Origin: a virus
Taxonomy: Duplodnaviria > Heunggongvirae > Uroviricota > Caudoviricetes
IMG/VR virus record: IMGVR_UViG_2663763326_000004
Span: 1 to 23,664 of that record
Direction: 5' to 3' (one strand)
Length of the DNA: 23,664 nucleotides
The stretch's first letter is position 1, and each line of letters opens with the position of its first letter. Position numbers and translations under genes: made by a program. This document shows positions 319 to 21,758 of the stretch, piece after piece. The notes under the pieces are model-generated. The model saw only the letters and a list, made by a program, of their open reading frames with translations. It made no database searches and had not been told where the DNA came from.

Positions 319-537
319 TTACATCCACATAATTTGCTGCCCTGACGGCAGCGGGTGCGGCCTTACGGCGTGGACTTCTCCCGGCTTCACAATGTATCGC
401 TGTACCGACTCATAAGTGATGAACGTGGCGCTGCAATTCACGTTCTGACACTGGTGATAACGCTCTTTTGTCGTGTCAGTGATATAGCGACTTGTACGCG
501 CATGTGCGGCATGCTGGCATAAAGGACAATGAAACAT
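319..537 (-). CDS. ogr: Late-gene transcription activator Ogr (zinc-finger, 72 aa)
   Basis: The ORF 319..600 contains MFHCPLCQHAAHARTSRYITDTTKERYHQCQNVNCSATF with a Cys-x2-Cys...Cys-x4-Cys zinc finger, which matches P2 Ogr as I recall it. The true start is the internal ATG at 537; the 21-aa upstream extension is not part of Ogr. Confidence 0.9.
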   Translation of the reverse strand: MFHCPLCQHAAHARTSRYITDTTKERYHQCQNVNCSATFITYESVQRYIVKPGEVHAVRPHPLPSGQQIMWM

Positions 538-618: not shown

Positions 619-1242
619 TCACTCATCATCTTCTGTTTCGTACTCCACATCAGAAAGCCTTACCTCAAGCTCCAAAGACGTCGTGAAGCCGCTATTATTG
701 AGAAAATGTGTAACCTTAGTGATGGTCCAGTCCTGCTCGTCTATGACGCGCTTAAAGCCTGACACTTTAACCGGTGTTTCCGTGTAAATATCTGCCCGTC
801 CGGTAGCCAGGCTGATGGAGAACTCTGCTACACCCCGTTGCAGTTTATCCCACTTCGCCTGAGCGGCACGCATGGCCTGTGCTTTCGTGGCATATACCGT
901 GGTCAGGGCAAAAACGTTGTCAGCCTCACCGGCCATGTATTCACCTTCGCGCGCTTCCGGTACTTTTGGCGCTTTCTTCTGCCTGACCGGTTTCGCTTTC
1001 GGGTGCTCCAGTGCGCGCAGGTGTTTCTCTTTCTTTTTGCGTTTCAGTTTTACCTTCTGCTTTTGCGGCTTCGGGTCTTTGGTGTGTAACCACTTTGCCG
1101 TTACGCCGGTGTAGGCTCCACGGTCAGCAATCGCAAAATGATGACGGTCGCCGTCGCTGCGGGTGATGGTGACCTGCTGGATTTTTTTACCGCTGGCCGT
1201 CACCCCCTGCCCCGCTTGCGTATTTTCATGAAAGGAGATCAC
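619..1242 (-). pseudogene. D: Tail protein D (late control gene D), C-terminal fragment, separated from its N-terminal half by the IS insertion
   Basis: The ORF runs from the IS junction to a stop at 619. Its first codon is a GTG formed partly by IS-terminal sequence, and its position between U and ogr matches P2 gene D. Confidence 0.8.
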
Positions 1243-1350
1243 TCAATAACTTCCATCGAGATCGGGTAATAACATTTGAACAGATCGCTGAATAACATCG
1301 ATGGAGATCACTTTTGACTCATTTTGTTATTCAGTGATCTCCATCAATGT
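1229..1350. repeat. IS21-family left terminal repeat region (multiple transposase-binding repeats)
   Basis: A terminal GGAGATCACTCAATAAC is followed by an internal inverted copy GTTATTCAGTGATCTCC and by ATCGATGGAGATCAC. Confidence 0.55.
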
Positions 1351-1409
1351 TATTGGAACTTCACAGGTGTGTTGATCTGTATCTTTTGCCATTCCGGTAA
1401 AGGATACCT

Positions 1410-2951
1410 ATGCCAACAGTTCCAATTTCTATGAGAAAACTTAAAGAAATTCTTAGGCTTAAATACGGTGTTGGACTCAGCCATCGACAAATTGGTCGTA
1501 GTCTTGCAATCTCCCCTTCCGTTGTATCCAGATATGCTAATCGGGCGGCTCAACTTGGCATAAAGCAGTGGCCCTTACCTACAGGATGGGATGATACAAA
1601 ACTAAAACATGCGTTCCTTCAGACCCAGGTTAAGATGAAGAAGCACTCTCTGCCTGACTGGGCTACAGTACACCGGGAACTGCGTAATAAATGCGTGACG
1701 CTGCAGCTACTCTGGGAAGAATACTGTGAGCGTAATCCAGGCGGTTTTTACAGCTATAACCATTACTGCCGGATGTACCGTGAATGGCTCAAAACCACTT
1801 CACCATCAATGCGTCAGGTACATAAAGCTGGCGAAAAACTTTTCGTTGATTACTGTGGACCTACCGTTGGCGTTACCGACCCTGAGACCGGAGAAATAAG
1901 AACTGCTCAGGTCATCGTAGCTGTTCTCGGGGCATCAAGTTACACATGGGCAGAGGCCACCTGGTCTCAGCAGCTTGAAGACTGGGTGATGAGTCATGTT
2001 CGCTGCTTCCAGTGGTTGGGTGGCGTTCCTGAACTTGTTGTTCCGGACAATCTGAAAAGCGCCACATCCAGGGCATGTAAGTATGATCCTGACGTTAACC
2101 CTACCTACCAGCAGATGCTTGAGCATTATAATGTCGCAGTTTTGCCTGCGCGGCCACGTAAACCGAAAGATAAAGCCAAAGCTGAAGTTGGCGTTCAGGT
2201 TGTTGAACGCTGGATCATGGCCCGAATCAGGCATGAGATCTTCTACAGCCTTGCATCGCTTAATCAGCGCATTCGGGAGTTGCTGGAAAGACTGAATAAC
2301 AAAATAATGCAGAAGTTGGGTTATTCACGTGCAGAACTCTTCATCCAGCTTGATAAACCCGCACTGAAGCCTCTTCCTGAAGCCAGTTACAGTTACACCC
2401 TGGTGAAGAAAGTCAGAGTTCATGCCGATTACCACGTGGAAATCGACAAACATTACTACTCGGTTCCATGTTCGCTGTTAGGCCAGCAACTGGAAGCATG
2501 GATCTCCGGAGAACTGGTAAGACTCTTCAATCAGGGGCAGGAGGTTGCTGTGCACCCGCGCAAGCGTACTTATGGCTACAGTACCCGCAACGAGCACATG
2601 CCTGAAGCTCATCGACAGCATGCCACCTGGACGCCAGAGCGTCTTCTGGAATGGGCGGGGCACATAGGCAGTGAAACTCATAGTTATGTGCTTCATATAC
2701 TGAACTCTCGTCCACATCCGGAACAAAGCTATCGCTTCTGCCTTGGACTCCTGAACCTTCATAAAAAATACAGTAAAGCCAGACTTAATGCAGCATGTGC
2801 AAGAGCTCTGAAAACAAAGGTATGGCGTCTGTCAGGTATTAAATCGATCCTGGAAAAAGGTCTGGATAAACAACCTGTTCAGGATCCAAAACCAGATCTG
2901 TTATCCACGATGGAACACGAAAACGTACGCGGCAGTGAGTATTACCACTGA
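1410..2951 (+). CDS. istA: IS21-family transposase IstA (513 aa)
   Basis: N-terminal helix-turn-helix region followed by an integrase-like catalytic core. It is immediately followed by istB, the typical IS21 arrangement. Confidence 0.9.
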   Translation: MPTVPISMRKLKEILRLKYGVGLSHRQIGRSLAISPSVVSRYANRAAQLGIKQWPLPTGWDDTKLKHAFLQTQVKMKKHSLPDWATVHRELRNKCVTLQLLWEEYCERNPGGFYSYNHYCRMYREWLKTTSPSMRQVHKAGEKLFVDYCGPTVGVTDPETGEIRTAQVIVAVLGASSYTWAEATWSQQLEDWVMSHVRCFQWLGGVPELVVPDNLKSATSRACKYDPDVNPTYQQMLEHYNVAVLPARPRKPKDKAKAEVGVQVVERWIMARIRHEIFYSLASLNQRIRELLERLNNKIMQKLGYSRAELFIQLDKPALKPLPEASYSYTLVKKVRVHADYHVEIDKHYYSVPCSLLGQQLEAWISGELVRLFNQGQEVAVHPRKRTYGYSTRNEHMPEAHRQHATWTPERLLEWAGHIGSETHSYVLHILNSRPHPEQSYRFCLGLLNLHKKYSKARLNAACARALKTKVWRLSGIKSILEKGLDKQPVQDPKPDLLSTMEHENVRGSEYYH

Positions 2952-2962
2952 TACGGGATCCA

Positions 2963-3712
2963 ATGATGAATCATCTTTACGAACAACTGACCGCACTTAA
3001 ACTCACCGGCTTCCGTGATGCGCTTAAAAAGCAACTTGCTCAACCGGGCACATACCAGGAGCTGGGCTTCGAAGAACGCCTGTCATTACTGACAGCAGAA
3101 GAACTAACCTGCCGTGAAAACAGGAAGGCAGAGCGTCTGATCAAACATGCACGGTTCAGACTTAATGCTGAGTTATCAAAGCTGGATTATCGTAACAATA
3201 GAGGGCTGGACAGGGCCCTCATCCGTTCACTCAGTCAGGGAAACTGGTTAACCCTGAAACAAAATATTTTACTGACCGGGGCCACCGGCAGCGGTAAAAC
3301 GTTCCTGGCATGTGCACTTGGTCATAATGCCTGCCGACAGGGATACAAGGTCTACTATTATCGCCTTAAAGCGCTGATGGAACAGTGCTATCAGGGGCAT
3401 GCTGATGGAAGATACAGCAAACTTTTGACCAGGCTGAATAATAGCGATCTGCTGCTTCTGGATGACTGGGGGCTGGAACCTCTCTCATCAGAACAGCGTA
3501 GCGACCTGCTGGAAATAGTGGATCTGATGTACCAACGAGGCTCAATCATCGTAGTGAGCCAGTTGCCGGTGGAAAACTGGTACAAAATGATCGGAGACTC
3601 CACACATGCGGATGCCATCCTAGATCGACTGGTTCATGGCAGTATCAAGATCGAACTTAAAGGAGAATCAATGCGGAAAATACAATCTCCGTTGACCGAA
3701 GGAGATCAGTGA
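2963..3712 (+). CDS. istB: IS21-family helper ATPase IstB (249 aa)
   Basis: Walker A motif GATGSGKT and Walker B motif LLLLDDWG, in a DnaC/IstB-like protein directly downstream of istA. Confidence 0.9.
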   Translation: MMNHLYEQLTALKLTGFRDALKKQLAQPGTYQELGFEERLSLLTAEELTCRENRKAERLIKHARFRLNAELSKLDYRNNRGLDRALIRSLSQGNWLTLKQNILLTGATGSGKTFLACALGHNACRQGYKVYYYRLKALMEQCYQGHADGRYSKLLTRLNNSDLLLLDDWGLEPLSSEQRSDLLEIVDLMYQRGSIIVVSQLPVENWYKMIGDSTHADAILDRLVHGSIKIELKGESMRKIQSPLTEGDQ

Positions 3713-3744
3713 AGGTAATTTAAAAACGGTTCTGTGAAAGTGAC

Positions 3745-3785
3745 ACGAACCGATCTCCATCGATGTTACTCACCGATCTCCTTCA
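3745..3785. repeat. IS21-family right terminal repeat region
   Basis: Two direct copies of CCGATCTCC (ACCGATCTCCATCGATGTTACTCACCGATCTCC) at the right IS end, inverted relative to the left-end repeats. Confidence 0.55.
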
Positions 3786-4368
3786 CGGTAATACGCACCG
3801 CTTTGAGAAACAACAATTTTCCCATTTTTACCGACACCTCACCGCCGTTGCGTTCTGCAAGACGGGTCAGGAATTTCGCATCAGACTCCTGCGACTGGTC
3901 GATGTGCGGGATTTTAATTCCGGCCAGTGACGGAGCGACACTGGCTTCCAGCCTGTTACGGGAGGCTATCGCCTCAACAATCGCACCGAGCGTGGTGTCA
4001 TGCCAGGAGCCTTCACGGCGGGAATTGAGCGTCCCGCGGAAATCTGCACTCCGGGCGCGGATGGTGACCACATCCGGCGCGCCCCGGTGTTCAACCTCAT
4101 CAACGGTGAATTTCCCTTTGCATACCAGGGCAAAACCTTTCCAGCCGATATACACCGTCAGGACAGCGCCACGAACCGGCAGCCCGACCTGCCCGTCGGC
4201 ATCGTTCAGTTCAATATCAAGCTGGTCAGCCTCAAAGCCCCGGTTATCCGTCAGGGTCATGCTCATCAGACGGTCACTGATATTGCCGGTAATATCCCTG
4301 CTGTCGAGCATCAGCATGTAATCCGGCGTCAGCGTACTGCCTGCATCAAATGTCAGTGCATCCAGCAT
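3766..4368 (-). pseudogene. D: Tail protein D, N-terminal fragment truncated by the IS21-family insertion
   Basis: Starts MLDALTFDAGSTLTPDYMLMLDSRDITGN, with its ATG overlapping the U stop (TAATG). The last few codons (KEIGE-stop) are read from IS-terminal sequence. Confidence 0.8.
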
Positions 4369-4847
4369 TATCCCGCCCCCGTCATACCTGTGAATTTAGT
4401 CGCCATACTGCCAGCCTTACCGATGAGCGATTCCGCCTGTTTACCGATATCGCCATAAAGCGCGGCCAGTGATTCGTCAACGCGGGTGAGCGACAGCGTA
4501 AAATCAATTTTTCGGGGTGTGCCGTCTGCAAAGAAAATACTCCCTGTTTCACTCACCCTGCTGATGACATACATGCCGTAAATCATGCCGGTACCATCCA
4601 GCAACGGCCACGCCCGACCTTCCTCTGCCATCAGCCTGAGCGTGGTCATCGTCAGCTTGCCGCCGGTCAGTTCGGGATAAAGCACACCGGCCAGCGTCAT
4701 GTTTTCCTCGCCAACGCCGAGAAACTGGTAGGCATCCCGTTTACCGATACGGGAATTTGACGGCCAGCGATAATCTGATTCACGCTGCATGGTCTGGTGT
4801 GGCAGCGTCTGGCGCATAAAAACAAACATACCTAACGCGAGCATCAT
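4368..4847 (-). CDS. U: Tail protein U (159 aa)
   Basis: Length and position match P2 gpU between T and D. Confidence 0.85.
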   Translation of the reverse strand: MMLALGMFVFMRQTLPHQTMQRESDYRWPSNSRIGKRDAYQFLGVGEENMTLAGVLYPELTGGKLTMTTLRLMAEEGRAWPLLDGTGMIYGMYVISRVSETGSIFFADGTPRKIDFTLSLTRVDESLAALYGDIGKQAESLIGKAGSMATKFTGMTGAG

Positions 4848-4861
4848 TTTTCGTCACCTCC

Positions 4862-7309
4862 TTAACCGTCATGCATCATGCTGGCACGGGAGCGCGCACG
4901 TTTATCCCGCTCGTATTTTTCGAGCGCATCCTGTAACTGGCGGTCAAGCTGTGTCCCCGGCGCAGTACCACCCGTCAGGCTGATGTGATATTCGTTTTTA
5001 CTCTGGTCCACATAAGAGCGGCCAGCCGGTGCCGTGACCGGCTGATAAGTCTGATAGCCTGCATAAGAGCTGGTCGCCGGAATATAACCACCGGTGCCAT
5101 ACGTGGCGGCATGAGTTCTGGCGGCGGTCTGGTCAAGTGTGTCTGACTCTTTGTTGATAACACCGAGTTTTTCCAGTACCCAGTCAATACCGCTGCGCAG
5201 TTTGTTGAACGCATTAAGCGGCAGCATCAGCGCGTCAGCCAGTGCCTGCCCGAACATGACCCCCGTGTCACGGCAACTGTTCAGGGTGTCCTGAGTGGCT
5301 TTGACCGGGGCAATCAGGTTTTTAAACCACTGCCACGCGGCCTGTAACTTTTCACCCAGCCAGTCAAACACCGGCTTAAGTGGCGTGAACAGTTCCCCCA
5401 CCGGCGCAAATGCCACTTTCAGCCCTTCAACCACACCGCCAAAGAATGCGCTGACAGGCTCCCAGTATTTACGGATAAGCAACGCCCCGGCGACAATTGC
5501 GGCCACCACGGCCACAACCGGCCAGCTAATAGCCCCGATGGCGGTCATAACAGCACTGCCAACCGTCGTGAAGACTGCCCCCATTGCGCCTGCTGCCGCG
5601 ATGATGGCATTGATGCCGGTGATAACCGGCCAGGCTGCGAGGCCAATGGCACCGATGACACCAATCAGCGCCAGCGCGCCACCGGCAATGATGCCGATGG
5701 TTGACACCAGTGATTTGTTTTTCTGGATCCAGCCGTCGAGTTTTAACACATACTTTGTGGCCGTCTGCGTGAGCTTACGCAGCGCGCCTTCCTGCTGGTC
5801 AAACAGGTCAGTCCCCACCGCCTCATAAGCGGACTGAAACTCTTTAAAGTCACCGCCTAGGTTGTCCTGCATGATATTTACCAGCTCGGCGGTCTTCCCG
5901 TCTGAGGCTTTAAACGCAGCGGTCAGTTTGTCCAGCTTTCCGGTTGAGGCGGCAGTCATCAGCACGGCGGCGGCTGAGCTGGCCTCCTCCCCGAAAATAG
6001 TTTTCATGTATTCAGCCTGCTGGGCAGTACCGAGCCGGTTTTTCTCAAAACTGGCCTGCATTTCTTTCAGAATGGTAAATATTGGCCGGGTGTTTCCCTT
6101 GCTGTCTGAGGTTTTCACTCCAAGCTCTTTGAGTGCATCCCATGCTTTTCCCGTCGGTGCCTGCAGGCGGCTTAACACGGCACGGCTTCCCGTCCCCGCC
6201 ATTGAGCCTGTGATTTTTGCATCATGCAGCGCCCCGACCATTGCGGCGGTTTCTTCAATGCTGACACCGGCATTTTTTGCCACAGGTGCGGCATAGGTCA
6301 GCGCATCGCTCATGCCGTCAAAATCGGCGGCGGTTTTGTTCATCGTCATGGAGAGAACATCCCCGATATGAGCGACCTTATCGTTTGAAAGCTGAAAGGC
6401 GGATTTCATCCCCATCAGCAGGGCGGCGTTTTCTTCCATCGTGCGGCGGTTCGCCAGCGCCATATTCAGCGTGACCGGCGTTGCCGCCTGAATGGCATCA
6501 ACATCCCCACCCGCTTTCGCGATGATTATCTGTGCACCGGCCGCATCATCCGCCGAGGCGGCGGTATTGTCGCCGAGCTGGCGCGCCTGTTTGCGTAGTG
6601 CGGTCATTTCGGCGGAGTCTTTTGCCACTCCGAGCACGGCCTGCAATTCTGAGTTTTTCTGCGCAAACTCATAACCGGGCATCAGCAGCTTAACTCCGGC
6701 CATCGTTCCCGCCGCCGCAATCCCCACACCGGCAGCGCCCACCGAGGCCATATTTCCGGCCAGTTCCTTTCCGGCCTGATAACGCTGTTTTACTGCGTTA
6801 AGTTTTGCCTGTTGCGCACTGACACGCGCCAGCGCATCACGCTGACGGTTAAGCTGTGCGGTGGTTTCACTGATACGGTTTTTCAGTCCCTGCTCATCAT
6901 GTGCAAGATTGCGGGTATTAATTCCCACAGCGGCCAGTTCCCGCTGCTGGCGTTTAAGGGAATCTGTCAGGCGGTTATATTTCGCCTGTAAGTCCTCCGC
7001 CGCACGCTTTGCGGATTCCAGCACTTTCGCCTGAGCACGGGTCGGACGTTCAGTGTTTTTAAACTGTGTGGCAAGGGCTTCGGCCTCCTGCCGTGCCTTT
7101 TCAAGTGCATGACCAGTCACGGCGAGCTGTGCGCTGGTCTTGCGAAATCCCTCAATACGGGATGCGTGACCGTTCAGCTCGCGCAGTGATTTTTGTGTTT
7201 CCCGGATATCCCCCGACAGCGACTTGCTCGCTGTGCGGATGGATTTAAACGGGCGGGATGCCTGGTCAACAGCCCTGAGCAATACCTGTAATTTTACATT
7301 GTTACTCAT
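4862..7309 (-). CDS. T: Tail tape measure protein T (815 aa)
   Basis: Long coiled-coil N-terminal half and a Gly/Ala-rich hydrophobic segment. The 815-aa length matches P2 gpT and the start ATG overlaps the E' stop. Confidence 0.9.
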   Translation of the reverse strand: MSNNVKLQVLLRAVDQASRPFKSIRTASKSLSGDIRETQKSLRELNGHASRIEGFRKTSAQLAVTGHALEKARQEAEALATQFKNTERPTRAQAKVLESAKRAAEDLQAKYNRLTDSLKRQQRELAAVGINTRNLAHDEQGLKNRISETTAQLNRQRDALARVSAQQAKLNAVKQRYQAGKELAGNMASVGAAGVGIAAAGTMAGVKLLMPGYEFAQKNSELQAVLGVAKDSAEMTALRKQARQLGDNTAASADDAAGAQIIIAKAGGDVDAIQAATPVTLNMALANRRTMEENAALLMGMKSAFQLSNDKVAHIGDVLSMTMNKTAADFDGMSDALTYAAPVAKNAGVSIEETAAMVGALHDAKITGSMAGTGSRAVLSRLQAPTGKAWDALKELGVKTSDSKGNTRPIFTILKEMQASFEKNRLGTAQQAEYMKTIFGEEASSAAAVLMTAASTGKLDKLTAAFKASDGKTAELVNIMQDNLGGDFKEFQSAYEAVGTDLFDQQEGALRKLTQTATKYVLKLDGWIQKNKSLVSTIGIIAGGALALIGVIGAIGLAAWPVITGINAIIAAAGAMGAVFTTVGSAVMTAIGAISWPVVAVVAAIVAGALLIRKYWEPVSAFFGGVVEGLKVAFAPVGELFTPLKPVFDWLGEKLQAAWQWFKNLIAPVKATQDTLNSCRDTGVMFGQALADALMLPLNAFNKLRSGIDWVLEKLGVINKESDTLDQTAARTHAATYGTGGYIPATSSYAGYQTYQPVTAPAGRSYVDQSKNEYHISLTGGTAPGTQLDRQLQDALEKYERDKRARSRASMMHDG

Positions 7310-8316: not shown

Positions 8317-9507
8317 TTAATTGCTGTTAACCGAGGTGACCAGATTTGCCAGGTATTTATCGGTAATACGCTGGCGCAGGGTCAGGTTTTCGAGAGGAGG
8401 CACCGGGGTATAGTCGTAGTCGATATACAGTTTGCCGGCCTTGAGGGTTTCCGCATCGTTGGATTCTTCGCTAAACCAGCAGGTCGCATCCACGATATAG
8501 CCGTTTGTTTTCAGCTCACGGAATTTGGCATTGATGCCGTCAACGATGTCGCGAATCAGCGTTGCGGTGATGGGCTTGTCCACCGCCCACATGTGCGCCT
8601 CAGCCATCGTGTCGGCCAGCACCTGCGCGGTGCGGGTGTAGTTTTCAAAGAGGAACAGCGGGTCATCAGAGCAGGTACGGTTACCCCAGAAGCGGAAACC
8701 GTCACGGCGAATCAGCGTTGTGACACCTGACTCGTTCAGCAGGTCAGCATCGGTGCCGGACTCCTGCAAATCCCAGAATACGGACGCACTGATGCCGGTA
8801 ACACCGTTTACCCCGACGTTGGACAGCGTTTTATGCCAGCCCTGCTCCTGGTCGATTCTGGCACGCAGACCCAGCGCACGGGCGGTGGCATACGCGGTGG
8901 CGGTGGTACTGGTGACCGTATCCCATGCGAGGAAATCCGGCCAGATTACCATCAGCTCACGCTGGCTGAAATTCTGGCGGTAGGCTTTCACCTCGGAAAT
9001 GGTTTTACAGCCCCATGCGCTGATATACCCGAAAGCGCGCAGCTTCTGGCAGACTGATGCCAGTGCAACAGCCACCTCTTTGGTGTCCAGTCCCGGCACA
9101 CCGAGAATACGCGGTTTAACACCGGTTACCGACTCTGCCGCCAGCAGGGCTTTCAGTCCGGTATACTGACCGTTTTCGTCAGTGGTGCCGATGATATTGG
9201 AAACGGTCTGCGCGAGTTTCGTTTCTTCGTCGTCGCCGGTGCCGTCTTCCACACGCACGACAACGGTGACCGGTTTTGACTGGTCAGCGATGGCCTGCAG
9301 CGACGCCGCCAGCGTGCCTTTTTTACCGGCCTTTGCAATTGCGCTCTGCACATTGGTAATCAGCACAGGTTTATTGAGGGGGAAGGTTTCCGCATCCGCA
9401 TCGCTGGCCGTGCAGACCATGCCGACAATGGCAGTGGATACAGTGGAAATGACGCGGGTGCCGTCGTTAATCTCCAGCACCTGCACGCCGTGATGATAGT
9501 CACTCAT
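8317..9507 (-). CDS. FI: Contractile tail sheath protein FI (396 aa)
   Basis: 396 aa starting MSDYHHGVQVLEINDGTRVISTVSTAIVG, with a GGAG ribosome-binding site 8 nt upstream. Matches P2 gpFI. Confidence 0.9.
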   Translation of the reverse strand: MSDYHHGVQVLEINDGTRVISTVSTAIVGMVCTASDADAETFPLNKPVLITNVQSAIAKAGKKGTLAASLQAIADQSKPVTVVVRVEDGTGDDEETKLAQTVSNIIGTTDENGQYTGLKALLAAESVTGVKPRILGVPGLDTKEVAVALASVCQKLRAFGYISAWGCKTISEVKAYRQNFSQRELMVIWPDFLAWDTVTSTTATAYATARALGLRARIDQEQGWHKTLSNVGVNGVTGISASVFWDLQESGTDADLLNESGVTTLIRRDGFRFWGNRTCSDDPLFLFENYTRTAQVLADTMAEAHMWAVDKPITATLIRDIVDGINAKFRELKTNGYIVDATCWFSEESNDAETLKAGKLYIDYDYTPVPPLENLTLRQRITDKYLANLVTSVNSN

Positions 9508-9534
9508 CCGTTTAACTCCGTGGTTAATGGGTGC

Positions 9535-9600
9535 AACTATTTTCTGTTGTGCAGAGCATGAGACGCTATTTGACCTGGCTGGTCAGTGGATGAAACAACA
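9535..9600 (-). promoter_or_regulatory. Candidate late promoter for the FI-FII-E-T-U-D operon (Ogr-dependent, P2 P_F-like)
   Basis: P2 late promoters carry an Ogr dyad (TGT-N12-ACA) centred near -55. Upstream of FI there is a partial match, TGT-ttcatccactga-cCA, and an A/T-rich -10-like AGAAAATAG about 25 nt before the ribosome-binding site. Confidence 0.3.
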
Positions 9601-10081
9601 GATAAAGAAAAGGCGAGCAATCAGCCCGCCTGCCTTGATTTGTACTCTTTCAGTTTCCAACTGACAAATTACGTAACCAAAACTCTGTCAAATCTGACAG
9701 TCTGCTTTGAGCGAAAAACAGGTATTGAGATACATAATAAATCATCTCAATTTTCAACTTTTCTGCCACTTAACATCTTGAGTAGTAAATAGTACAAAAC
9801 TATCTACTGCCGAAGGGCTCTAGGAAGTATGGTTTCTGCACAATAAGACTTATATCGGCTCACGGGGAGCCAAAAGATATTCATTGCCTAGAATTTGCAG
9901 ATGAGGTGGTAATCTGTACTGGGGCGGTACTGCAACAGCTATGTATATTTCCACTGCGGTAATCTGTACCAGCAGGTAGAAGCTGTTATACATCACCGCC
10001 CCTGTAGTGCTAATCCGGAGATAGCACTACTCTCATCAAGGCTTGTTCTTCCATAAACCGCAATAGGTGTTAGTTTTAGCC

Positions 10082-10939
10082 TTAATGTAAAATTAACAAT
10101 TGATTCAGACGCTTATGTAATTTTGTGGTTCTAAATGTATGATGATCGTAACTCATACGCATATAACTATCTATCTCATCCAGACGCATGTTCTTATTTA
10201 CAGATATATCAGTTTCATACATCATTTTTAATATACATGTAAAGTCATGACCATTGCATATAGAAAAATGATCTGGCGACATTAATTCTAATTTACGCAT
10301 TTCATTATATAAATTTTTCGCATTAAAATCCTTATCAGTACGACTCCTGCTAAGCACATGATTTATATATTTGGTTTCATCAACTACAACATCTGTCCTG
10401 TTAATACTTACAAAATTCCTGTAATTCATTCCTTTGAAATTAAGATTGCTATGTGTAAGATAATTGTACCATTTGAGAAGTCCGATTTTATAGCATGCAC
10501 AAAGGATGTTCATCTTTACATCCTGACAGAATATATCGGCCAATTCCCCTTGAATTAATTTTCTATCTGTATGTGACATAATGAATTTATCAACCGCACC
10601 ACCTTTTACTAACATCATTTCAAGGTCATGAGCATCAGTATAAAAAATCCCCTCGTGATTTATTCCGCTTAACTCATCAAAGTCCGCGTCACATACACCA
10701 TACACAGCATTATTACCTGCACGACGTAATTGACTAACAGCCAATATTACTTCACGTTTTCCATTTTCAGGTGATTCATAAATGATTCTATTATCAAGCC
10801 GATATGCATTGAAAAATCGGATATCTGAAATGCCCTCAACCACAATCAATATACAACGTTGATACATTTCATTTCTGAATAAAAGCATCATACTACTCAA
10901 CCAATCATCTTCGCGAACAGCATTGCGTAATGACATCAT
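10082..10939 (-). CDS. DUF4435/TOPRIM-like (OLD-family-type) putative nuclease, AriB-like effector of a PARIS-like system (285 aa)
   Basis: N-terminal ILIVVEGISD (TOPRIM glutamate) and downstream VYGVCDADFDE (DxD metal-binding motif). GC content is very low, and the ATG follows the upstream ATPase stop with no gap (TAA ATG). Confidence 0.7.
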   Translation of the reverse strand: MMSLRNAVREDDWLSSMMLLFRNEMYQRCILIVVEGISDIRFFNAYRLDNRIIYESPENGKREVILAVSQLRRAGNNAVYGVCDADFDELSGINHEGIFYTDAHDLEMMLVKGGAVDKFIMSHTDRKLIQGELADIFCQDVKMNILCACYKIGLLKWYNYLTHSNLNFKGMNYRNFVSINRTDVVVDETKYINHVLSRSRTDKDFNAKNLYNEMRKLELMSPDHFSICNGHDFTCILKMMYETDISVNKNMRLDEIDSYMRMSYDHHTFRTTKLHKRLNQLLILH

Positions 10940-12184
10940 TTACTCGTTTCCTTCTGAAAGCTGTTGGCTTTCATTTCTATTTCTAATCATTTCATATAGA
11001 TCGTATGTTAATTCCCAATTCTTACTAATTACTTGTGGTGAATGAGTAGCAATAATGACCTTTTCATACTTGTTAATCTTTTGTATTTTTTTGAGAGAAT
11101 CCAAGAAAGTTTGTTGCCAGGCGACATGTAATGATATTTCTGGCTCGTCTATAAGAATTACTTTTTGTGAAACAAAATCGAAAATCAAATTAAAAAGAAG
11201 AACTATTTGGTTCTGTTCACCTGATGAAAGCAAATTACGATCAATAACATCGCCATTGTGACTTTTGAAATAAAATCCGTTATCTCTATCAATCATCACT
11301 TTTTTAAAAGCTAAAACCTTTTCTTTCAAAATTGATTCAAATAAATCAATTTTTTGATGTAATGTCTGAAACGGTGACAATTTTCCAAGGGCATCTTCAA
11401 TATATAGATCCAACACACTTAGATATTCATTGCTACTATAAAAACTTGTGCTTTTTTGAGGCATTAGCTCGTTATCAGCCTGAATAAGGCCATAACGCAT
11501 ATAATGTCGACGTTTATCTTGAATACCATTTAAGCGATCTTGAATATTTTCTGATGAAAATCGTTTTGATTGCTCTAAACGCTCAAATAATCGAATAGGA
11601 AATGTAGCGTCTAATTTTTGTGATAATGCAGCGGAATCATCTTGTGCATTTTTCATTAAATATTTTAATTTTCTAGCACATAAGTCAATGACTGTTTCAT
11701 CAACAGCTTTGACTTGTAATCGATCTGCACATATAAAAGATACGTCTTCTTTCGATGTAATATGACTTAACACATCCGAAGATAATGGTTTATCAGTTCG
11801 TAATTTTTGTTTTGGTTTAACATCCCCCCTATGCAAGCTTACATAAAATAACTCTTCCATAATAGATTCATCTGTCTGTAACTTGAGTCTTTCTTCCGTT
11901 CTGTTTCCTGAGCTATTATCCAGATGATTCAATATTAAACCATCTTTATTGGTGTCATGAGTAATTGAAACAGAGCCACCTTGAAAATCAATTTTAATAA
12001 AATCAAAATTAAGTTTACAGAGAGCATTTAATTCATTTGTAAGAATACTATTGATGATTTTAAGAATCATTGTCTTACCATATCCATTTGGACCAGTAAG
12101 CATAGTAATTTCATTGTTATCCAAGGGAATTTCATAATCAAGGAGACCAAATAGTTTTTTTACTTTTAAATGTATCAATTTCAT
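10940..12184 (-). CDS. ABC/SMC-like ATPase (AAA_15/AAA_21 type), AriA-like sensor of a PARIS-like system (414 aa)
   Basis: Walker A GPNGYGKT, an ABC-signature-like LSSGEQ, Walker B VILIDEPE and an H-loop IIATHSP, with a long helical insertion between the nucleotide-binding halves. AT-rich codon usage is unlike the flanking phage genes. Confidence 0.75.
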   Translation of the reverse strand: MKLIHLKVKKLFGLLDYEIPLDNNEITMLTGPNGYGKTMILKIINSILTNELNALCKLNFDFIKIDFQGGSVSITHDTNKDGLILNHLDNSSGNRTEERLKLQTDESIMEELFYVSLHRGDVKPKQKLRTDKPLSSDVLSHITSKEDVSFICADRLQVKAVDETVIDLCARKLKYLMKNAQDDSAALSQKLDATFPIRLFERLEQSKRFSSENIQDRLNGIQDKRRHYMRYGLIQADNELMPQKSTSFYSSNEYLSVLDLYIEDALGKLSPFQTLHQKIDLFESILKEKVLAFKKVMIDRDNGFYFKSHNGDVIDRNLLSSGEQNQIVLLFNLIFDFVSQKVILIDEPEISLHVAWQQTFLDSLKKIQKINKYEKVIIATHSPQVISKNWELTYDLYEMIRNRNESQQLSEGNE

Positions 12185-12199
12185 ATCAACCTCGCAGAC

Positions 12200-12280
12200 G
12201 ATGAATTATAACCATTTATTACATGGCGCATATGAAATGCAATATATCATTGTCATGAGTTGCATTTCAAACATATGCCC
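12200..12280 (-). promoter_or_regulatory. Candidate sigma70 promoter(s) with an embedded inverted-repeat operator, upstream of the ATPase gene
   Basis: On the coding strand, TTGAAA, an 18-nt spacer and TATATT, followed by a second perfect TATAAT about 20 nt before the ATG and a GAGG ribosome-binding site. The inverted repeat GAAATGCAA-N17-TTGCATTTC brackets the first -35 and -10 elements. Confidence 0.4.
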
Positions 12281-13214
12281 CAACATCAATGCTAAATCCG
12301 TGATTAAAATTAATAAACTTCTGGTTTTTGCAAATAATTTCTTGCCCTAATAGTTTGGAAATACCTCTTTTAAATTTATAGTGAATAATATTACGCCCAT
12401 TTAGTTCTCTCTTTGCAGAACTGAACATGTCGGGAGCTACTGTGTGGAGAAACACTGAAACGATCGTTAGTGAATATTTGCACACTGGTGATAGTACTAA
12501 ACAGCCCTTTGGTCATGTCCGAAAAATAGTGACTCGTACAACATGATCGATGTGATAGCATTTATGACAGTGAAACATAACAATCACCTTTGAACATTTT
12601 CCATACGTGCATTATACCTATTAAATCTAAACAAAACAAATAGATATAAAATATTCATCCGCGTATCTTCATGCTCTCATATACCACATACGGGAGCCTT
12701 AACATCAAGTACTAAGCACGTCGTGAAGCTGTTTCCGTTAAGACGACTTTGCACTACTTGACTGATTAGCCATGCCTGCTTGTCTATCACACATTTAAAG
12801 TTTTTCATCGCTAACGTAGTTAGTCCATTCCCTTGAATGGCGTTTTACCAGTCTATATATGACAAATATCGTACTTTTTCCACATTCAGTCCAATTCATT
12901 CACCGCTCCCGATTCACCTACAACACCCTCTCAACGACGTTCTCTGTACCTGTAATACCGGCGCAAATTGCGTCGAAAATGTCGTTCTGCATCGCATAAA
13001 CCTTCATCAGATTTGGCCTACAATGCAGCGAATAGTCTGAAATTAAAAACCGATGATGATGGACTGTACTGTTCATGCAAGTCTGGTCGCTCTGTGCCTC
13101 ATCAAGGAATGAATAATGATCTTGGCGACGTCTACTCTTGGCACAGAGCGGACTGTCAGATTAGTTTTTACTCTGTGCCATAGATGAGTAATCTCACACC
13201 AGATCTAATACAAT

Positions 13215-13793
13215 TTATTGCGGCATTTCCGGCCATTCTATATCCGGAGCATCTTCCGGCTGAACGCGATTCAGTAACACACGGTATTTTTTCCAGTGTG
13301 TCAGGCTTAACTTTTCTTCCTCGGTAGCCATATCTAAATCGACAGCATCCTGCAGCGTGGCAATGATTTCACCTGCATATGCAATCTGCTCTTTCTTCTG
13401 AGACTCCGCCGCTCTGACAAGCGCATCACGCTCTGCATTCTCATCATTCACCCACGCATTTCCGTTCCATTTCTGATAATCCCCCTCCGGGGAAATGGCT
13501 GTCACGTCTGGAGGTAATGCGCCAAGTTCAGAAATATAAATGGCTGCTCCCGTTTTCGTTTCGTAGACAGTCTTTCCGCGATGATCTTCCATCAACTCCC
13601 ATTTCATTTCATCTGCATTGAAAACGGCTGCATAACCAGCAGGAATATCAGGTGGTGCAATATCTGTACTGTTTGCAGGCAGGCCAGTATACGGCGGAAT
13701 ATATGCATCACTTTCGCCAATAAACTCATTGGTTCCATCAAGTAAATTGAAAACGCGGATAGTTTGTGCTTCTGCACTCATTCTGAAAGCCAT
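13215..13793 (-). CDS. G: Tail fiber assembly protein G (192 aa)
   Basis: Directly downstream of H with its ATG overlapping the H stop (TAATG). Size and position match P2 gpG. Confidence 0.8.
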
Positions 13794-16411
13794 TATGCAA
13801 GCCTCACAATATAGTTAAATGCGATGTTTTTGACGGTGTTTTCGGTATTACCAGTAGCATTTACGGTAATGGAATGCCCGTGTGAGCCAATAGCAACAGT
13901 GTGTGAATGTGCACCAATACCAACAGTATGGTTATGTGCTCCAATGTCGACTGTATGTGCATGATTGCCTGATGAACTTGTAGTCGTAGCACCTTTATCA
14001 CTTCGCGGAACACCATAATCTGCACCGCCTGATTGCACGCTCACAGCAAAACCGACGGTATGTGTATGATTGCCAGAAGTATTGGTTGATTTTGTGCCGT
14101 GGTTAAACGTACTGACTGTTTTTGTCCCGTAATCAAATGAACTGGTCGTTTTCGTTCCTAAGTCCGTATTTGACGCACTGGCGCTGTGAGTATGCGATTT
14201 AATCCCGTCCTGTTCCTGTGACAATACGGCACGCCCACTGGCGGGTTTGCCCTTGATTGTCCAGCCGCGCATATCAGGAATAACACCAGAAGGATAGGCA
14301 ATAGCCAGTTTCGGATATGCAGCCTTATCAAACGTCTGCCCCTGCATGATCGCATAGCCTGCAGGTGGTGTATCTGATGGCCACGGCAGCGGAACACCTG
14401 GCGGAAACGCTTCAATATCTTTCGTCCCGTCAAAGGTTACGCCGTTAATTGTCCTTGCCGTTTTCAGCTTTGTTGCTGTAGCAGCATTGCCGGACAGTTC
14501 GCCTGAAAGACCGGCGCTGAAGGTTTGTTTCGCCGCCCATGTCTGGGCTTCGTCAATAATTGGCACACGTCTTGTGGTGATCGTGCGACTTCCCGGATTT
14601 CCTGAAATACGCACCATAAAAAAGCGGTAGTTCGCTTTACTTACAGTGCTGCGCCATACATGCATTGAGCGCCCCGCACCGGAATCATCACTCGGACCAA
14701 CTGAGATGTTTATCAGGTTGCCATCAATGACGCCCCAGTCCATACCTTCGGGAATGTTGGTCATGTTATCAAGCCGAACGGTTATCAGACTGCCCGGCAC
14801 AAAGTCGTAGGTCTGCCAGTCCAGGCTGGAGAGTTTTGCCACTGCACCGCCGATACCCAGATTCAGGGGAAGTGAATACGAGGTGTAGACTTCCCGCCAT
14901 TCGCTCCACGAGCTGCCGGTATAGACGCGCTCAAACGTGCGACCTTTAAGGGTTGCACCTGTTCCGGCAGTTGTATAACGCTGCCATACGTTAACACCAT
15001 CAAAGCGCCTCAACACTTCCAGAATCCCGAGGACTGTCACGCCGTTTCCGTCCAGTATTGGACCGTTGGTCGCTTTACCTGTAACGCTGTAAATACCTGG
15101 TGAAGTCACCTCATTCAAATCCCCGTCGTAATAACGACTCTCTGACTGATGACCGACTCTTAACCACGGTTCCCACTGTGGATTTGATGCATCCCAGCTT
15201 GCCGCAAGGCAGCGGACATACATATTTCCACGGCGAGTGGTATAACGTTGCGTTCTTCCATAATTCCCGCCTTCGAGGATCTCAAGCATCCCCTGAGCAA
15301 AGCCGCCTTCCTCTGGATAATTGCGTTCATATGAAGCTATAGCCGAGCTACTGTTACGCCATAAACCAAGATGCTCGGCGGCTCCAAGCGTATTCAGGTC
15401 TATAGTCGTACTCAAAGGGCGGGTAGCAGATTGAGTGTGACGCCATACGCCCCACGGACCATCAGTGCCATTCCACTTATTGGCGAGTTTACGCATGTAA
15501 ACATTGCCGTCTCTCGTGGTAAAGCGTTGCGTACCTGCAAAATTGCCGGCAGCAAAAACCTCAAGCACACCGACAGCATTATCTTCCGGGAAATTTTTCT
15601 CCAGTGTTGCGTTAGTTGAGGTAGCTTTAGACCAGATCCCCAGATAAGCCTTAACGGGACCAAATGTATTCAGGTCGGCATCAACCGGCATTTCGCCATT
15701 GTTTTTCATAAACGTCAGACTGGTAACGCCAACATTGTCCAGAAAAGCTGATTTATCCTGGATATCTGCACCATTCTGATTTTTCGCCAGACGTGAATTT
15801 GCGTTGTCATTTGCTGCCTTGACCGCTTTTGGCGTTGCCGCCAATGACTCACTGGTGCTGTTTGTTGCACTGCTTAACTGAGTAAAACCTTTTTCTGTCA
15901 GCGTGGCGTCAGGATGGCGGCGGGACTGCTCATGTTCTGCGATTTTGTCATCGACGTAATCCTGCGTCGCCATCACTGTGCTGGCATCAATACTCAGCTC
16001 AACGGACGCCACGTTACTGACAATAATAACCATGCGGCAGGTCTGCGCACGCCCGGAGCCTTCAGCGAGTTCAGGCTTATAGCTTTCTGCCATGTTGGCG
16101 ACCGCAATCAGTGTTCCGGCATCGTCATACAGACCAAGCTCACGCATCCAGAAGCCGCCCACTTCGGGCGGTACAACCAGTTCAGCCACGATATAGTTTT
16201 TATTCTTATTATCCACGCTGACTTTATTCAGAGCGTGACGCCAGACCTCATGCACCAGTTTCGTCTGACCGGCATCCGGCACCGGCAATTTGCCATTACC
16301 GTCACCCACGGCCATTGCAGACAGGTTTACTTTTTTCCCGCCGGGGACAGTGGCGGCTGCCAGCTTCGCGGCTCCGGCAGTAGTGATAACGGTTTTAAAT
16401 TTCGTGCTCAT
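13793..16411 (-). CDS. H: Tail fiber protein H (872 aa)
   Basis: Conserved P2-type N-terminus [30 protein letters not shown]. The central region has three tandem repeats of about 60-70 aa and the C-terminus has repeated HxH motifs (GNHTHT, GNHAHT, AHNHT, AHSHT, SHGHS). Confidence 0.9.
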
Positions 16412-16421
16412 TGTTTCTCAC

Positions 16422-16952
16422 TTATCCGGGATAAACAGTAATAACATCACCATCACAGACCACACCGCCTGTATACAGATAGCCGGGAATGTCCTGGATA
16501 ATGTTCAGGCCGATAAGGTGGCGACTTGCGGGTTTGGCATCGGCAATCAGCCGTTCCATTTCCAGATACATTTCCTCTGTGATACCGCTTTCCAGCACAC
16601 CGATATCAAGACGAAAGGTTCCGGCCGGGTCGTTTGTCTCCCACCATTCCTTTACGTTAATGAGATAGCCGAGCGGCTCCACCACACGCCGGATTGCGCC
16701 GACAGTGCCTTTATGACAGTGGATGAAATAGGCATCGCGGATAACGGCGCGTTTTGTCGCTTCCGGCCACTTTTCATCCCACCTGTCGACCGAAAACGCC
16801 CACGCCAGCCACGGCAGCAGATTTGCCGGGCAGGTGTCCGGGTTCCACAGCTCACGAATACTGACCGGCGTTTTTTCAATTTCCGCACAGGCTTTTGCGG
16901 CGGCGACCTCAAGCGGTGATGAGCCGGTCGGCAGCAGGCGCGAATCACTCAT
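16422..16952 (-). CDS. I: Baseplate assembly protein I (176 aa)
   Basis: 176 aa between J and H, matching P2 gpI. Confidence 0.85.
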   Translation of the reverse strand: MSDSRLLPTGSSPLEVAAAKACAEIEKTPVSIRELWNPDTCPANLLPWLAWAFSVDRWDEKWPEATKRAVIRDAYFIHCHKGTVGAIRRVVEPLGYLINVKEWWETNDPAGTFRLDIGVLESGITEEMYLEMERLIADAKPASRHLIGLNIIQDIPGYLYTGGVVCDGDVITVYPG

Positions 16953-17853
16953 CCGAGCCTCCGGTCACGACGCGGTATTCGGTACAGAAAGACGCCTGCG
17001 TATTGTTGAGCACGATGTCGGCCAGCGGTGCAGCCAGTTCGACACGCTGCACGCCTTCCACATGCAAAGCGGCATAAATGGCAGACAGACGGATGTCGCG
17101 CCCCAGCCGGTGCTGTGCCGTGATATACGCTTCCAGTTTTTTCACGGCGGCAGCGCGGATGGGTTCGCTTTCGGGACCAGGGTAAAGGTAAAGCGTGGCG
17201 TTTATCTGGTATTCAACAATGGCGGCAGACTGCACGGTCACGCGGTCGGCCACCGGCCTGACGTCCTCGCCATTCAGGGCGTTACGCACCACCGCCAGCA
17301 GGTCTTCGGATGCGACGCCGTTATTTTCACGTGACAGCACAGAGATGGTGACGCAGGCCGGAGAAGGACTGGTGACAGAGATATCCGCGACACGCCCGTC
17401 GGCACTGCGACCATGATACTGATAGGCTCCCACCGACCCGGCGACGCTTAAACCTTCAAACGCCTGCTGAATACGCAGACGATAATCGGTGTCAGATTCC
17501 ATCACTGCCGGTGTCGGCGGGATGGTCGAATCATCTGCCGGGGTGATAATCAGGCGCGTGGTGTTGTAATTGGCACCAATCACATCAAGGTCGTTACCGG
17601 CGGCACAGGCCAGCATCACCGCCCGTGCGGCCTCATTCACACGCTGACGCCAGATAAGCTCACGATAAGCATTTTCCTCCAGCAGTTTGACGAGAGGCTC
17701 GGATTCCAGCGTCAGGGTACGGGCGACCGCCTCCTGCTGGTCTTCCGGGTAAAGGGAAATCAGTGTCGCCTTGCGTTCAGCGAGAATGGTTTCAAAGTCC
17801 AGCTCCTCGACCACATCCGGTGCGGGTAGCTGGTTCAGGTCGATAATCGGCAT
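16945..17853 (-). CDS. J: Baseplate assembly protein J (302 aa)
   Basis: 302 aa, overlapping the start of I by 8 nt, matching P2 gpJ. Confidence 0.85.
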   Translation of the reverse strand: MPIIDLNQLPAPDVVEELDFETILAERKATLISLYPEDQQEAVARTLTLESEPLVKLLEENAYRELIWRQRVNEAARAVMLACAAGNDLDVIGANYNTTRLIITPADDSTIPPTPAVMESDTDYRLRIQQAFEGLSVAGSVGAYQYHGRSADGRVADISVTSPSPACVTISVLSRENNGVASEDLLAVVRNALNGEDVRPVADRVTVQSAAIVEYQINATLYLYPGPESEPIRAAAVKKLEAYITAQHRLGRDIRLSAIYAALHVEGVQRVELAAPLADIVLNNTQASFCTEYRVVTGGSDE

Positions 17854-17857
17854 GGTT

Positions 17858-18205
17858 TCAACTCACAGGGATGGTTAACGAAAGTGGCTGGCCGGTGTCG
17901 TTGTGCTGGCCGGTTAGCGTAACTGTCATTCGCCCGTCAAAGCTGCGCGCCGTGGTGACGGATGACAGGGTGACGCGGGGTTCCCATTTCAGCACCGCCA
18001 TGTAACAGGCGACCTTAATCTGCAACTCAAGCGCCGGGGTCTGCGGCTGGTCAATCATTGATGCCAGCAATGAGCCGTAATCACGACGCATCACCCGTGA
18101 GCCGACCGGCGTGCGCAGGATATCGCCGATACTCTGGCTGATATGCTCAAGGTCAGTGACAGTCAGGCCATCACTGCGATTCATTCCGAGATAACGTGCT
18201 GTCAT
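17858..18205 (-). CDS. W: Baseplate assembly protein W (115 aa)
   Basis: The ORF 17858..18298 contains MTARYLGMNRSDGLTVTDLEHISQSIGDILRTPVG starting at the internal ATG at 18205. The upstream 31 codons overlap V and are not part of W. Confidence 0.85.
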   Translation of the reverse strand: MTARYLGMNRSDGLTVTDLEHISQSIGDILRTPVGSRVMRRDYGSLLASMIDQPQTPALELQIKVACYMAVLKWEPRVTLSSVTTARSFDGRMTVTLTGQHNDTGQPLSLTIPVS

Positions 18206-18836: not shown

Positions 18837-18902
18837 AACGGGAAGGATGCCGCCGGGTCATACCGGCGGCAATGTGACGATGAGGTGTCGGGAATGGCAC
18901 AA

Positions 18903-20759: not shown

Positions 20760-20773
20760 GGTGTTTACTCCGT

Positions 20774-21551: not shown

Positions 21552-21554
21552 GCG

Positions 21555-21758
21555 TTACTCCCACAGATTGACAGTTTCAGCCACGGGCGCGGTCTGAACG
21601 TCGGGCAGTTCGACGGCGGTGCCGTGCGGCAGCACCGCACCCAGTTCAGCCAGTCCCGGATTTGCGGCGAGCACAGTCTCGACCACGCCCTCAGTGCGCC
21701 CGTAATACCGGACACAAATGGCGTCGAGCGTGTCGCCCTGTAGCGCAAAGGTCTTCAT
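21555..21758 (-). CDS. X: Tail protein X (67 aa)
   Basis: Internal start MKTFALQGDTLDAICVRYYGRTEGVVETVLAANPGL within ORF 21555..21827. Confidence 0.85.
   Translation of the reverse strand: MKTFALQGDTLDAICVRYYGRTEGVVETVLAANPGLAELGAVLPHGTAVELPDVQTAPVAETVNLWE

Follow-up and report, generated by a model that had tools for sequence, protein, structure and literature searches.

Over the 2.7 kb searched, the stretch of DNA analysed here (the window; 23,664 nucleotides, IMG/VR record IMGVR_UViG_2663763326_000004) matches E. coli ST131 strain 751 with 100% identity; the P2-like (Peduovirus) prophage of this strain is sited between pflB and pflA. In the annotations of strain 751 and ST131 isolate 46, gene D closes the tail operon, with T and U upstream of it and ogr downstream. 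As the initial annotation of the window described, D is split here into two ORFs on the minus strand (3766..4368, 200 aa, and 619..1242, 207 aa) by an element with genes for IstA and IstB on the plus strand (1410..2951, 513 aa, and 2963..3712, 249 aa). The features of the locus are collected in Table 1.

Table 1. Features of the interrupted D locus, in window coordinates.
Feature	Position	Strand	Basis
ogr, late-gene activator, intact, downstream of D	319..537	-	strain 751 annotation
D 3' part, native residues 190-387, no native start	619..1216	-	ORF; RefSeq pseudogene M5R24_RS16035
CCGCT duplicate, side of the D 3' part	1212..1216	.	direct repeat; empty site with a single CCGCT
Complete ISEc12	1217..3797	+	six-copy comparison and PGAP-annotated copies
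Left terminal block, four direct units of ~23 bp (1217-1242, 1243-1266, 1267-1288, 1289-1311)	1217..1311	+	sequence reading, motif scan, inverted-repeat pairs
Terminal repeat unit in inverted orientation, in the left end upstream of istA	1333..1355	-	22 nt, 95% complementary; motif scan
istA, transposase, 513 aa, rve DDE core and Mu-transposase C-terminal-like domain	1410..2951	+	ORF, Pfam/NCBIfam; WP_001298859.1 in strain 751
istB, AAA+ helper ATPase, 248 aa	2966..3712	+	ORF, Pfam/NCBIfam; WP_001016257.1
Right terminal block, two repeat units read inward (3797-3773, 3772-3750)	3750..3797	-	inverted repeats, motif scan
CCGCT duplicate, side of the D 5' part	3798..3802	.	direct repeat; empty site with a single CCGCT
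D 5' part, codons 1-190 and first base of codon 191	3798..4368	-	ORF; RefSeq pseudogene M5R24_RS16050
Gene U, intact tail-protein gene directly upstream of D, same operon	4368..4847	-	ORF and annotation

Judged by its sequence, the interrupting element is a complete ISEc12 of the IS21 family, the family to which it had first been assigned. Both proteins were identified by whole-domain HMM matches: IstA scored 310.5 bits against NF033546 (cut-off 160) and matched Pfam rve and Mu-transpos_C_2, while IstB scored 270 bits against NF038214 (cut-off 200) and 227.5 bits against Pfam IstB_IS21. A GATGSGKT Walker A motif can also be seen by eye in the IstB translation. The gene order is that of IS21, with the istA stop at 2951 followed on the same strand by the istB start at 2963/2966 (the 249-aa ORF opens at 2963; RefSeq starts the gene at 2966). 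The ends are likewise of the IS21 kind, with imperfect terminal inverted repeats, TG...CA termini and several subterminal repeat units. A 17-nt motif, TAACATCGATGGAGATC (allowing up to three mismatches), occurs four times, each time within the IS ends, against 0.06 occurrences expected by chance, confirming the repeat-rich inverted termini noticed at the outset. The units of the left block each end in GA(G)ATC(A/G) and are presumed to be IstA-binding repeats.

The element spans 1217..3797 inside D (2581 bp, with the ends TGCGTATT...AATACGCA). Six ISEc12 copies taken from six unrelated contexts were all 2581 bp long with this same start and finish, each flanked by its own 5-bp direct repeat, and further copies in prophages showed the same termini and repeat behaviour. 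In DNA sequence, the element matches copies carrying an ISEc12 annotation in 2,904 E. coli genomes and 998 plasmids with 99.7-100% identity, and the name is taken from the RefSeq/PGAP label 'IS21-like element ISEc12 family' on identical copies. The 2581-bp unit was found in chromosomes, in plasmids of four genera and in four phage genomes, indicating that it moves as a discrete unit. Compared with the ISEc12 annotated in E. coli, Shigella, Klebsiella and Salmonella, the sequence, the IstA and IstB proteins, the TG...CA ends and the 5-bp duplication are the same; the element itself shows no difference, and only the insertion site, at D codon 190/191, is new.

These ends lie 12 bp further out on each side than the 1229..3785 originally given, a shift that changes how the insertion is read. 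With the narrower boundaries no clean target-site duplication had been recognised, and the flanks appeared to resemble the IS ends, which led to the suspicion of a rearrangement during insertion. With ends at 1229 and 3785, the outer 12 bp on both sides do form an inverted repeat, so the likeness is real; however, since all copies begin TGCGTATT and finish AATACGCA, those 12 bp are part of the IS and not of the flanks, which looked like IS ends because the boundaries had been placed too far in. The corrected ends reveal a perfect 5-bp duplication, CCGCT, at 1212-1216 and 3798-3802. Removing 1217-3797 and one CCGCT in silico regains a D ORF of 387 codons, and five other E. coli genomes carry the 600-nt restored site without a single difference, so no rearrangement took place. 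One of the five is ST131 isolate 46, which carries the same prophage between pflB and pflA with an intact D (WP_032190071.1), and the flanks in the window are colinear with it, with nothing lost. The comparison with an uninterrupted D that had been proposed as a check thus shows a single CCGCT at the empty site, identifies the duplication and reveals no deletion. We give a negligible probability to D having been rearranged as well, whether by deletion, by inversion or otherwise; on the aligned sequences, this is a clean and simple IS21-type insertion. Nor is D naturally bipartite, a possibility that the initial annotation had raised against its own reading, as the uninterrupted site is present in approximately 1,617 genomes and 96 phage records.

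Target duplications in the IS21 family are 4-8 bp long. Those of ISEc12 elsewhere are 5 bp, apart from two that appear to be 6 and 7 bp, and a 5-bp duplication also flanks the ISEc12 copy in tssM of ST131 (PMC10711316). No obvious target motif emerged among the duplications collected: CCGCT (twice), GTTAT, CCCGT, CGTGC, GCCGC, TCACC, TGATA, GTATC, GCGGT, TCTGG, CCTGA, GCTAT and CTTCA.

The interrupted gene is the D of a P2-like prophage, as had been proposed. The restored 387-aa protein matches Pfam PF05954 (Phage_GPD, 'baseplate hub') over residues 51-364 with 94.6 bits (cut-off 30.1), and the R2 pyocin hub protein of solved structure (6u5h_C) with an E-value of 4e-46. At the DNA level, the empty site shares 98.8% identity with the D gene of isolated Peduoviruses, and the late region shares 95-97% with these phages across about 76% of its length. 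The Phage_GPD match and the ogr-D-U-T order are shared with the P2 gpD of Peduoviruses; the difference is that D is here a pseudogene in two pieces, not a variant architecture. The break at residue 190 falls inside the first block aligned to 6u5h_C (residues 14-231). The two ORFs do flank the element, but neither consists of D alone: the upstream one reads 10 codons into the IS (VRITVKEIGE) before its stop at 3766-3768, and the downstream one is opened by an in-frame GTG at 1242, within the IS, such that the first 9 of its 207 codons are IS-encoded and the remainder covers the C-terminal half of D. Because of the target duplication, the D 3' part holds residue 190 onward. A consensus scan for promoter-like sites reading out of the left end of the IS returned two sites against 4.9 expected, with none at the junction; being no higher than chance, this led us to reject an outward IS promoter driving the C-terminal D fragment or ogr.

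We are highly confident that ISEc12 transposed into D of the P2-like prophage of strain 751 by simple insertion, likely grounding the prophage. In such an event, IstA would act on the repeat-rich ends of the IS while IstB captures and bends the target DNA, and a 5-bp staggered cut, once filled in, would give the CCGCT duplication. D is cut after codon 190 of 387, leaving an upstream piece that can yield at most a truncated protein of 200 aa (190 native residues and 10 encoded by the IS), and a downstream piece deprived of its start codon and promoter-proximal context. In classical P2 genetics, D is essential. In a cryo-EM preprint on P2 (10.64898/2026.09.14.750843), the hub consists of three gpD copies and lies between gpU and the gpV spike. 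The product of D is the trimeric hub on which the P2 baseplate is centred, so a prophage lacking it should be unable to build tails and hence infective particles, and the expected product would likely be tail-less and non-infective. By RefSeq annotation, all other prophage genes from ogr to int are intact, and the prophage keeps its repressor, integrase, replication, head, lysis and accessory defence genes. The defence cargo includes the AriA/AriB pair.

Could the prophage nevertheless remain productive? A second tail cluster, about 15 kb upstream, contains a D-family gene (WP_000808007.1), the GTG-started ORF at 619..1242 could supply the C-terminal half of D for reassembly with the other fragment, and the IS might excise precisely in a subpopulation. 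However, WP_000808007.1 is only 33% identical to D over 178 residues of the N-terminal half, while its C-terminal half is almost unalignable, making complementation by this neighbour unlikely, and no second P2-type D locus was found in the strain 751 chromosome at megablast sensitivity. Reassembly is disfavoured by a break within the conserved block (residues 14-231) and by the lack of an outward promoter-like site at the left IS end, and precise excision of IS21-type elements is rare. We therefore consider continued production by any of these routes improbable. Mitomycin C induction, which had been put forward as a check, would be a weak test of infectivity, because P2-type prophages are classically not SOS-inducible. 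Less probable again is an assembly artefact in which a repeat copy was misplaced in the strain 751 genome. The junction between D and ISEc12 occurs in only 1 of 5,426 complete genomes, that of strain 751, and this genome has six places matching the IS-containing query, presumably other ISEc12 copies, both of which could fit such an error. Against this, a misplaced repeat would not produce a precise 5-bp target duplication with full-length IS ends, and such events are common: thirteen other records carry independent ISEc12 insertions near the site, 12 of the 13 with their own duplication. A simple insertion remains the explanation we favour. The event is already annotated in RefSeq and is ordinary as a single insertion; we infer that it happened recently and by accident and was not selected.

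To place this insertion among others, we looked for ISEc12 in the late genes of P2-like prophages and found it there in over 70 other complete genomes, spread across dozens of sites. In the ogr-D-U-T corner it occurs in 13 other complete genomes, corresponding to 10 additional events, each at a new position of its own, with both orientations represented, and at least 60 further genomes carry it in or beside the baseplate/lysis/head region, over at least 26 different spans. With at least as many copies in the latter region, we rejected the D/T corner as a special hotspot. An orientation bias was also dismissed: the first five neighbouring insertions shared the window's orientation, but an IS-reversed query added eight opposite ones, the apparent bias having arisen because the search joined same-strand pieces only. 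In the tape-measure gene, two independent, oppositely oriented ISEc12 hits are separated by 1 bp, and the prophages concerned occupy different sites in the chromosome. ISEc12 was absent from all P2-like phage records, leading us to reject the idea that viable P2-like phages carry it; the only phage records with ISEc12 are four Escherichia phages of about 52-54 kb, of the PhiR12 series. No paper connecting P2-like prophages with ISEc12, or with IS21 elements, came up in our literature search.

The same design applied to IS1, IS2, IS3 and IS5 together listed about 20 genomes, a ranking that under-samples IS1 and sets ISEc12 beside IS1 and IS5 elements with their own, different target tastes. These four families together number about 85,000 copies, against about 5,400 for ISEc12; per copy, ISEc12 is found in P2-like prophages far more often than the four combined. 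One reading is that ISEc12 preferentially inserts, or is retained, in P2-like prophage DNA, the copy in D being one instance, which complements the simple-insertion explanation rather than replacing it. The recurrence in both late regions, the small number of genomes with the other four families despite their abundance, and the near-coincident tape-measure hits all point this way, and IstB is known to give IS21 'structure-based site selectivity' (PMC11208146), a possible mechanism: the association could stem from a structure-based choice of bendable, GC-rich target by IstB. On the other hand, the genome counts include non-independent copies, not collapsed by phylogeny, the comparison covers P2-like prophages as the only prophage family, the IS1 sampling and differing target tastes blur the ranking, and prophages are permissive DNA for any IS. 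Weighing these, we hold such a preference only tentatively, at a little under an even chance. We are more doubtful of the broader proposal that ISEc12 is a recurrent, lineage-independent agent grounding E. coli Peduovirus prophages, by preference or retention, with their defence cargo kept.

The closest known case is the ISEc12 insertion in the T6SS gene tssM of ST131 clade C, which is ancestral and fixed, occurring in 99.8% of clade C genomes (PMC10711316). In both cases, the same IS in the same lineage has entered a gene for a structural part of a contractile injection machine by simple insertion, duplicating 5 bp, and the loss of that machine is predicted. However, the insertion in D is confined to a single strain and hits a prophage rather than a host secretion system. 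As in prophages grounded by an IS in general, a single element sits in an essential morphogenesis gene while immunity, integrase and accessory genes are kept; what differs is that ISEc12 events in P2-like prophages recur at many sites and in many lineages.

Taken alone, the event matters little: it is one ST131 blood isolate with a probably freshly grounded P2-like prophage. For strain 751 itself, it affects what should be expected of prophage induction and phage typing, and the insertion demonstrates present-day activity of ISEc12 in ST131. If ISEc12 does favour P2-like prophages, these would offer a natural in vivo system for studying target choice by an IS21-type helper ATPase, as well as a concrete route by which E. 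coli may fix temperate phages in place as carriers of AriA/AriB and other defence genes.

The element that interrupts gene D of the prophage carries two genes typical of IS21-family insertion sequences. Its 513-aa protein scored 310.5 bits against the NCBIfam equivalog model for IS21-family transposases (cut-off 160) and contains the Pfam rve DDE core, while the 249-aa protein scored 270 bits against the NCBIfam model for the IstB helper ATPase (cut-off 200) and also matched Pfam IstB_IS21. At the DNA level, the element is 99.7-100% identical to copies named 'IS21-like element ISEc12 family' in RefSeq, bearing out the family assignment made in the initial annotation. All testable features of the family are present (gene pair, ends, duplication and mobility), and, judged by its sequence, the element is ISEc12 proper, the same as the known element and without variant features. 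Among 5,426 complete E. coli genomes, 2,904 have such copies, as do 998 plasmids from Escherichia, Shigella, Klebsiella, Salmonella and other genera.

To fix the ends of the element, we compared the window copy with five others in unrelated contexts: one in a phosphoethanolamine-transferase gene on a chromosome, one in an island adjoining radC, and the rest on plasmids from E. coli, Shigella flexneri and Klebsiella pneumoniae. All copies are 2581 bp long, start with TGCGTATTTTCATGAAAGGAGATCAC and finish with ...CCTTCACGGTAATACGCA, and each has its own 5-bp direct repeat (GTTAT, CCCGT, CCGCT, CGTGC, GCCGC). The limits and target duplication in the table follow from these shared properties. The initial annotation correctly placed an IS21-type element here, but its bounds (1229..3785) omit 12 bp on each side. 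These 12 bp are the outermost terminal inverted repeat, which explains the likeness it saw between the flanks and the IS ends; the likeness is real, but it belongs to the IS itself. The clean target-site duplication it could not find is also present, and a 5-bp duplication has likewise been described for ISEc12 in tssM of ST131 (PMC10711316). The core motif TAACATCGATGGAGATC (up to 3 mismatches) occurs four times in the window, against 0.06 expected by chance, always within the IS ends, whose layout is of the IS21-family type.

Features of the ISEc12 insertion and its surroundings (window coordinates)
Feature	Position	Strand	Description
ISEc12	1217..3797		2581 bp; termini common to compared copies
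Target duplication CCGCT	1212-1216 and 3798-3802		flanks ISEc12
Left terminal block	1217-1311		four direct units of ~23 bp, each with GA(G)ATC at end
Inverted copy of terminal repeat unit	1333-1355		single
Right terminal block	3750-3797		two repeat units
ORF, 513 aa	1410..2951	+	IS21-family transposase (ORF calling and profile matches)
ORF, 249 aa	2963..3712	+	IstB helper ATPase (ORF calling and profile matches)
ORF, 207 aa	619..1242	-	flanks the plus-strand ORF pair
ORF, 200 aa	3766..4368	-	flanks the plus-strand ORF pair, other side
AAA ATPase (414 aa) and DUF4435 protein (285 aa)	10082-12184	-	adjacent genes within low-GC island
ISEc12 insertions in other E. coli records (loci L009-L020)	394-1216 and 3803-5624		mapped onto the window

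Removing the element and one copy of CCGCT in silico rejoins a 1164-nt frame of 387 codons, confirming that the element splits the reading frame of D. The 600 nt centred on the restored site are 100% identical, without gaps, in five other complete genomes, where they lie within an intact gene for a 'phage late control D family protein'. One of these, ST131 isolate 46 (NZ_OX637964.1), has the same prophage in the same chromosomal place with an intact D (WP_032190071.1), and its alignment with the window consists of two blocks, joined at the duplication. The junction between IS and D was found in one of 5,426 complete E. coli genomes: O25b:H4-ST131 strain 751 (NZ_CP103562.1), a blood isolate from Houston. 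This genome is 100% identical to the stretch searched (window 1150-3860), and in it the window begins directly after pflB. The identical empty sites, the two-block alignment and the single-genome junction point to a clean, recent and strain-specific transposition. Comparison with an uninterrupted D, as proposed in the initial annotation, thus reveals a 5-bp duplication and rules out the rearrangement suspected there. A naturally bipartite D is also ruled out, as the uninterrupted site occurs in approximately 1,617 genomes and 96 phage records. In RefSeq, both parts of D in strain 751 are already marked as pseudogenes and the IS is named ISEc12, and the tssM insertion fixed in ST131 clade C documents ISEc12 activity in this lineage (PMC10711316). 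As a single event, the insertion in D is ordinary, of a familiar type and already in the annotation.

Over approximately 76% of its length, the late region of the prophage shares 95-97% identity with isolated P2-like phages, and the prophage can be assigned on sequence to Peduovirus. The identification of the interrupted gene as D holds: the restored protein has a match to Pfam Phage_GPD ('phage tail baseplate hub'), and the empty site shares 98.8% identity with phage R18C and Yersinia P2-like phages. Restored D also matches the solved R2 pyocin hub protein 6u5h_C (E = 4e-46) over residues 14-231 and again over residues 295-371, and ISEc12 is inserted within the first of these conserved blocks, after codon 190. 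The upstream ORF could encode 190 native D residues followed by VRITVKEIGE from the right IS end, while the downstream ORF has a GTG start within the left IS end (VISFHENTQ) and continues with native residues 190-387; a scan found no promoter-like site directed from the IS towards this downstream fragment. From ogr to int, all prophage genes besides D are annotated as intact. At megablast sensitivity, there is no second P2-type D in the strain 751 chromosome (sister genomes have two places), and the only other D-family gene seen nearby shares 33% identity across 178 residues. We infer that the prophage is likely still able to repress, integrate, replicate, package and lyse, but not to make tails, and the predicted loss of infectivity is a reasonable one. 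P2-type prophages are classically not SOS-inducible, so the mitomycin C test proposed in the initial annotation would not be decisive.

A low-GC island (35% vs approximately 56% around it) spans window positions ~9600-13100. Within it, the 414-aa AAA ATPase and 285-aa DUF4435 protein match the PADLOC models for AriA (E = 2e-25) and AriB (E = 3e-21), respectively, and are predicted to form a PARIS-like anti-phage pair. The pair, intact in this IS-crippled prophage, fills the accessory-gene slot that separates the tail sheath genes from those for the tail fibre. Between the AriA-like and tail fibre assembly genes, approximately 1 kb of low-GC DNA (12185-13214) contains only 71-72-aa ORFs and no annotated gene. 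Beyond the window, strain 751 encodes a 440-aa HEPN-domain protein (locus L003 5357-6679; record 3,263,356-3,264,678) between the portal gene and replication gene A, the other accessory-gene slot of P2-like phages; this is possibly a second defence gene. Upstream of the window, a second phage tail cluster (locus L001 1-9772; record 3,216,091-3,225,862) adjoins aroA, approximately 9 kb from the P2-like prophage. It comprises tape measure, X, D-family, V, W, J, I, fragmented tail fibre and invertase genes, several of the genes being pseudogenes; identity between its D-family protein and P2-type D is 33%.

Searches with the D flanks returned 13 other records with ISEc12 close to D, 12 of which were mapped. 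In these other E. coli genomes, the mapped records amount to 10 more independent insertions into P2-like prophages, each at a distinct position in the stretch from ogr to the tape-measure gene (in ogr, D, the U/T gap or T). The prophages lie at differing chromosomal sites, including pflB and yegQ, and the insertions occur in both orientations; an apparent orientation bias was an artefact of the tool joining only same-strand pieces. The IS has a target duplication of its own in 11/12 mapped records, the exception being strain EC2, where the far side is deleted. Two independent insertions in gene T (equivalent to window ~5425-5431) lie only 1 bp apart in opposite orientations, in FDAARGOS_1286 (L018) and FDAARGOS_1371/1370 (L014/L020), with prophages at pflB and yegQ and duplications of CTTCA (5 bp) and TTCAAC (apparently 6 bp). 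In RM8082, the duplication is apparently 7 bp (GTCTGGT). EC2 (L019) and P30_L1_05.20 (L013) share an identical ISEc12 insertion within the U/T gap. Past the IS, EC2 continues directly into a truncated terminase gene, which places the IS beside a deletion covering the tail, baseplate and head region.

To see whether the corner around D stands out, we queried with the IS, in either orientation, joined to 450 nt of the J/W baseplate junction; this gave at least 25 more genomes with ISEc12, at no fewer than 19 different spacings. With a 6-kb baseplate-to-lysis segment plus the IS, again in both orientations, ISEc12 lay in or next to P2-like late genes in 60/60 among the matches listed, and copies outside the segment showed 26 or more different spans. 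ISEc12 lies in or beside P2-like baseplate, lysis, head or tail genes in at least 60 complete E. coli genomes, at many positions in the region equivalent to window ~8,800-23,664 and beyond. The same like-for-like design with IS1, IS2, IS3 and IS5 of K-12 together gave approximately 20 such cases among the matches listed (IS1 being under-sampled by the ranking), despite approximately 85,000 copies in the collection vs approximately 5,400 of ISEc12 (at least 15-fold more, estimated from place counts). Per copy, ISEc12 therefore turned up in P2-like late regions ten or more times as often as these four together, with the serious caveats that the counts are of copies rather than independent events and ignore strain kinship, that only P2-like late regions are compared, that target taste differs from IS to IS, and that GC content is 55-56% in the P2 late region vs 47% for the IS.

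This association may come from target choice by IstB, and 'structure-based site selectivity' by target DNA bending has been described for IS21 IstB (PMC11208146). Simple retention of insertions in dispensable DNA is also possible. ISEc12 is found in none of the P2-like phage records, which fits with the insertions being inactivating. Full-length, 100% identical copies are present near the tail fibre assembly gene of Escherichia phages PhiR12_1, PhiR12_2, PhiR12_2_star and PhiR12_4 (PV340549-PV340553; about 52-54 kb, host listed as E. coli K-12 or C), so the IS can travel in phage genomes that are not P2-like. Our literature search found no paper connecting ISEc12 with P2-like prophages, and their recurrent association is the only part of these findings that might repay more work.
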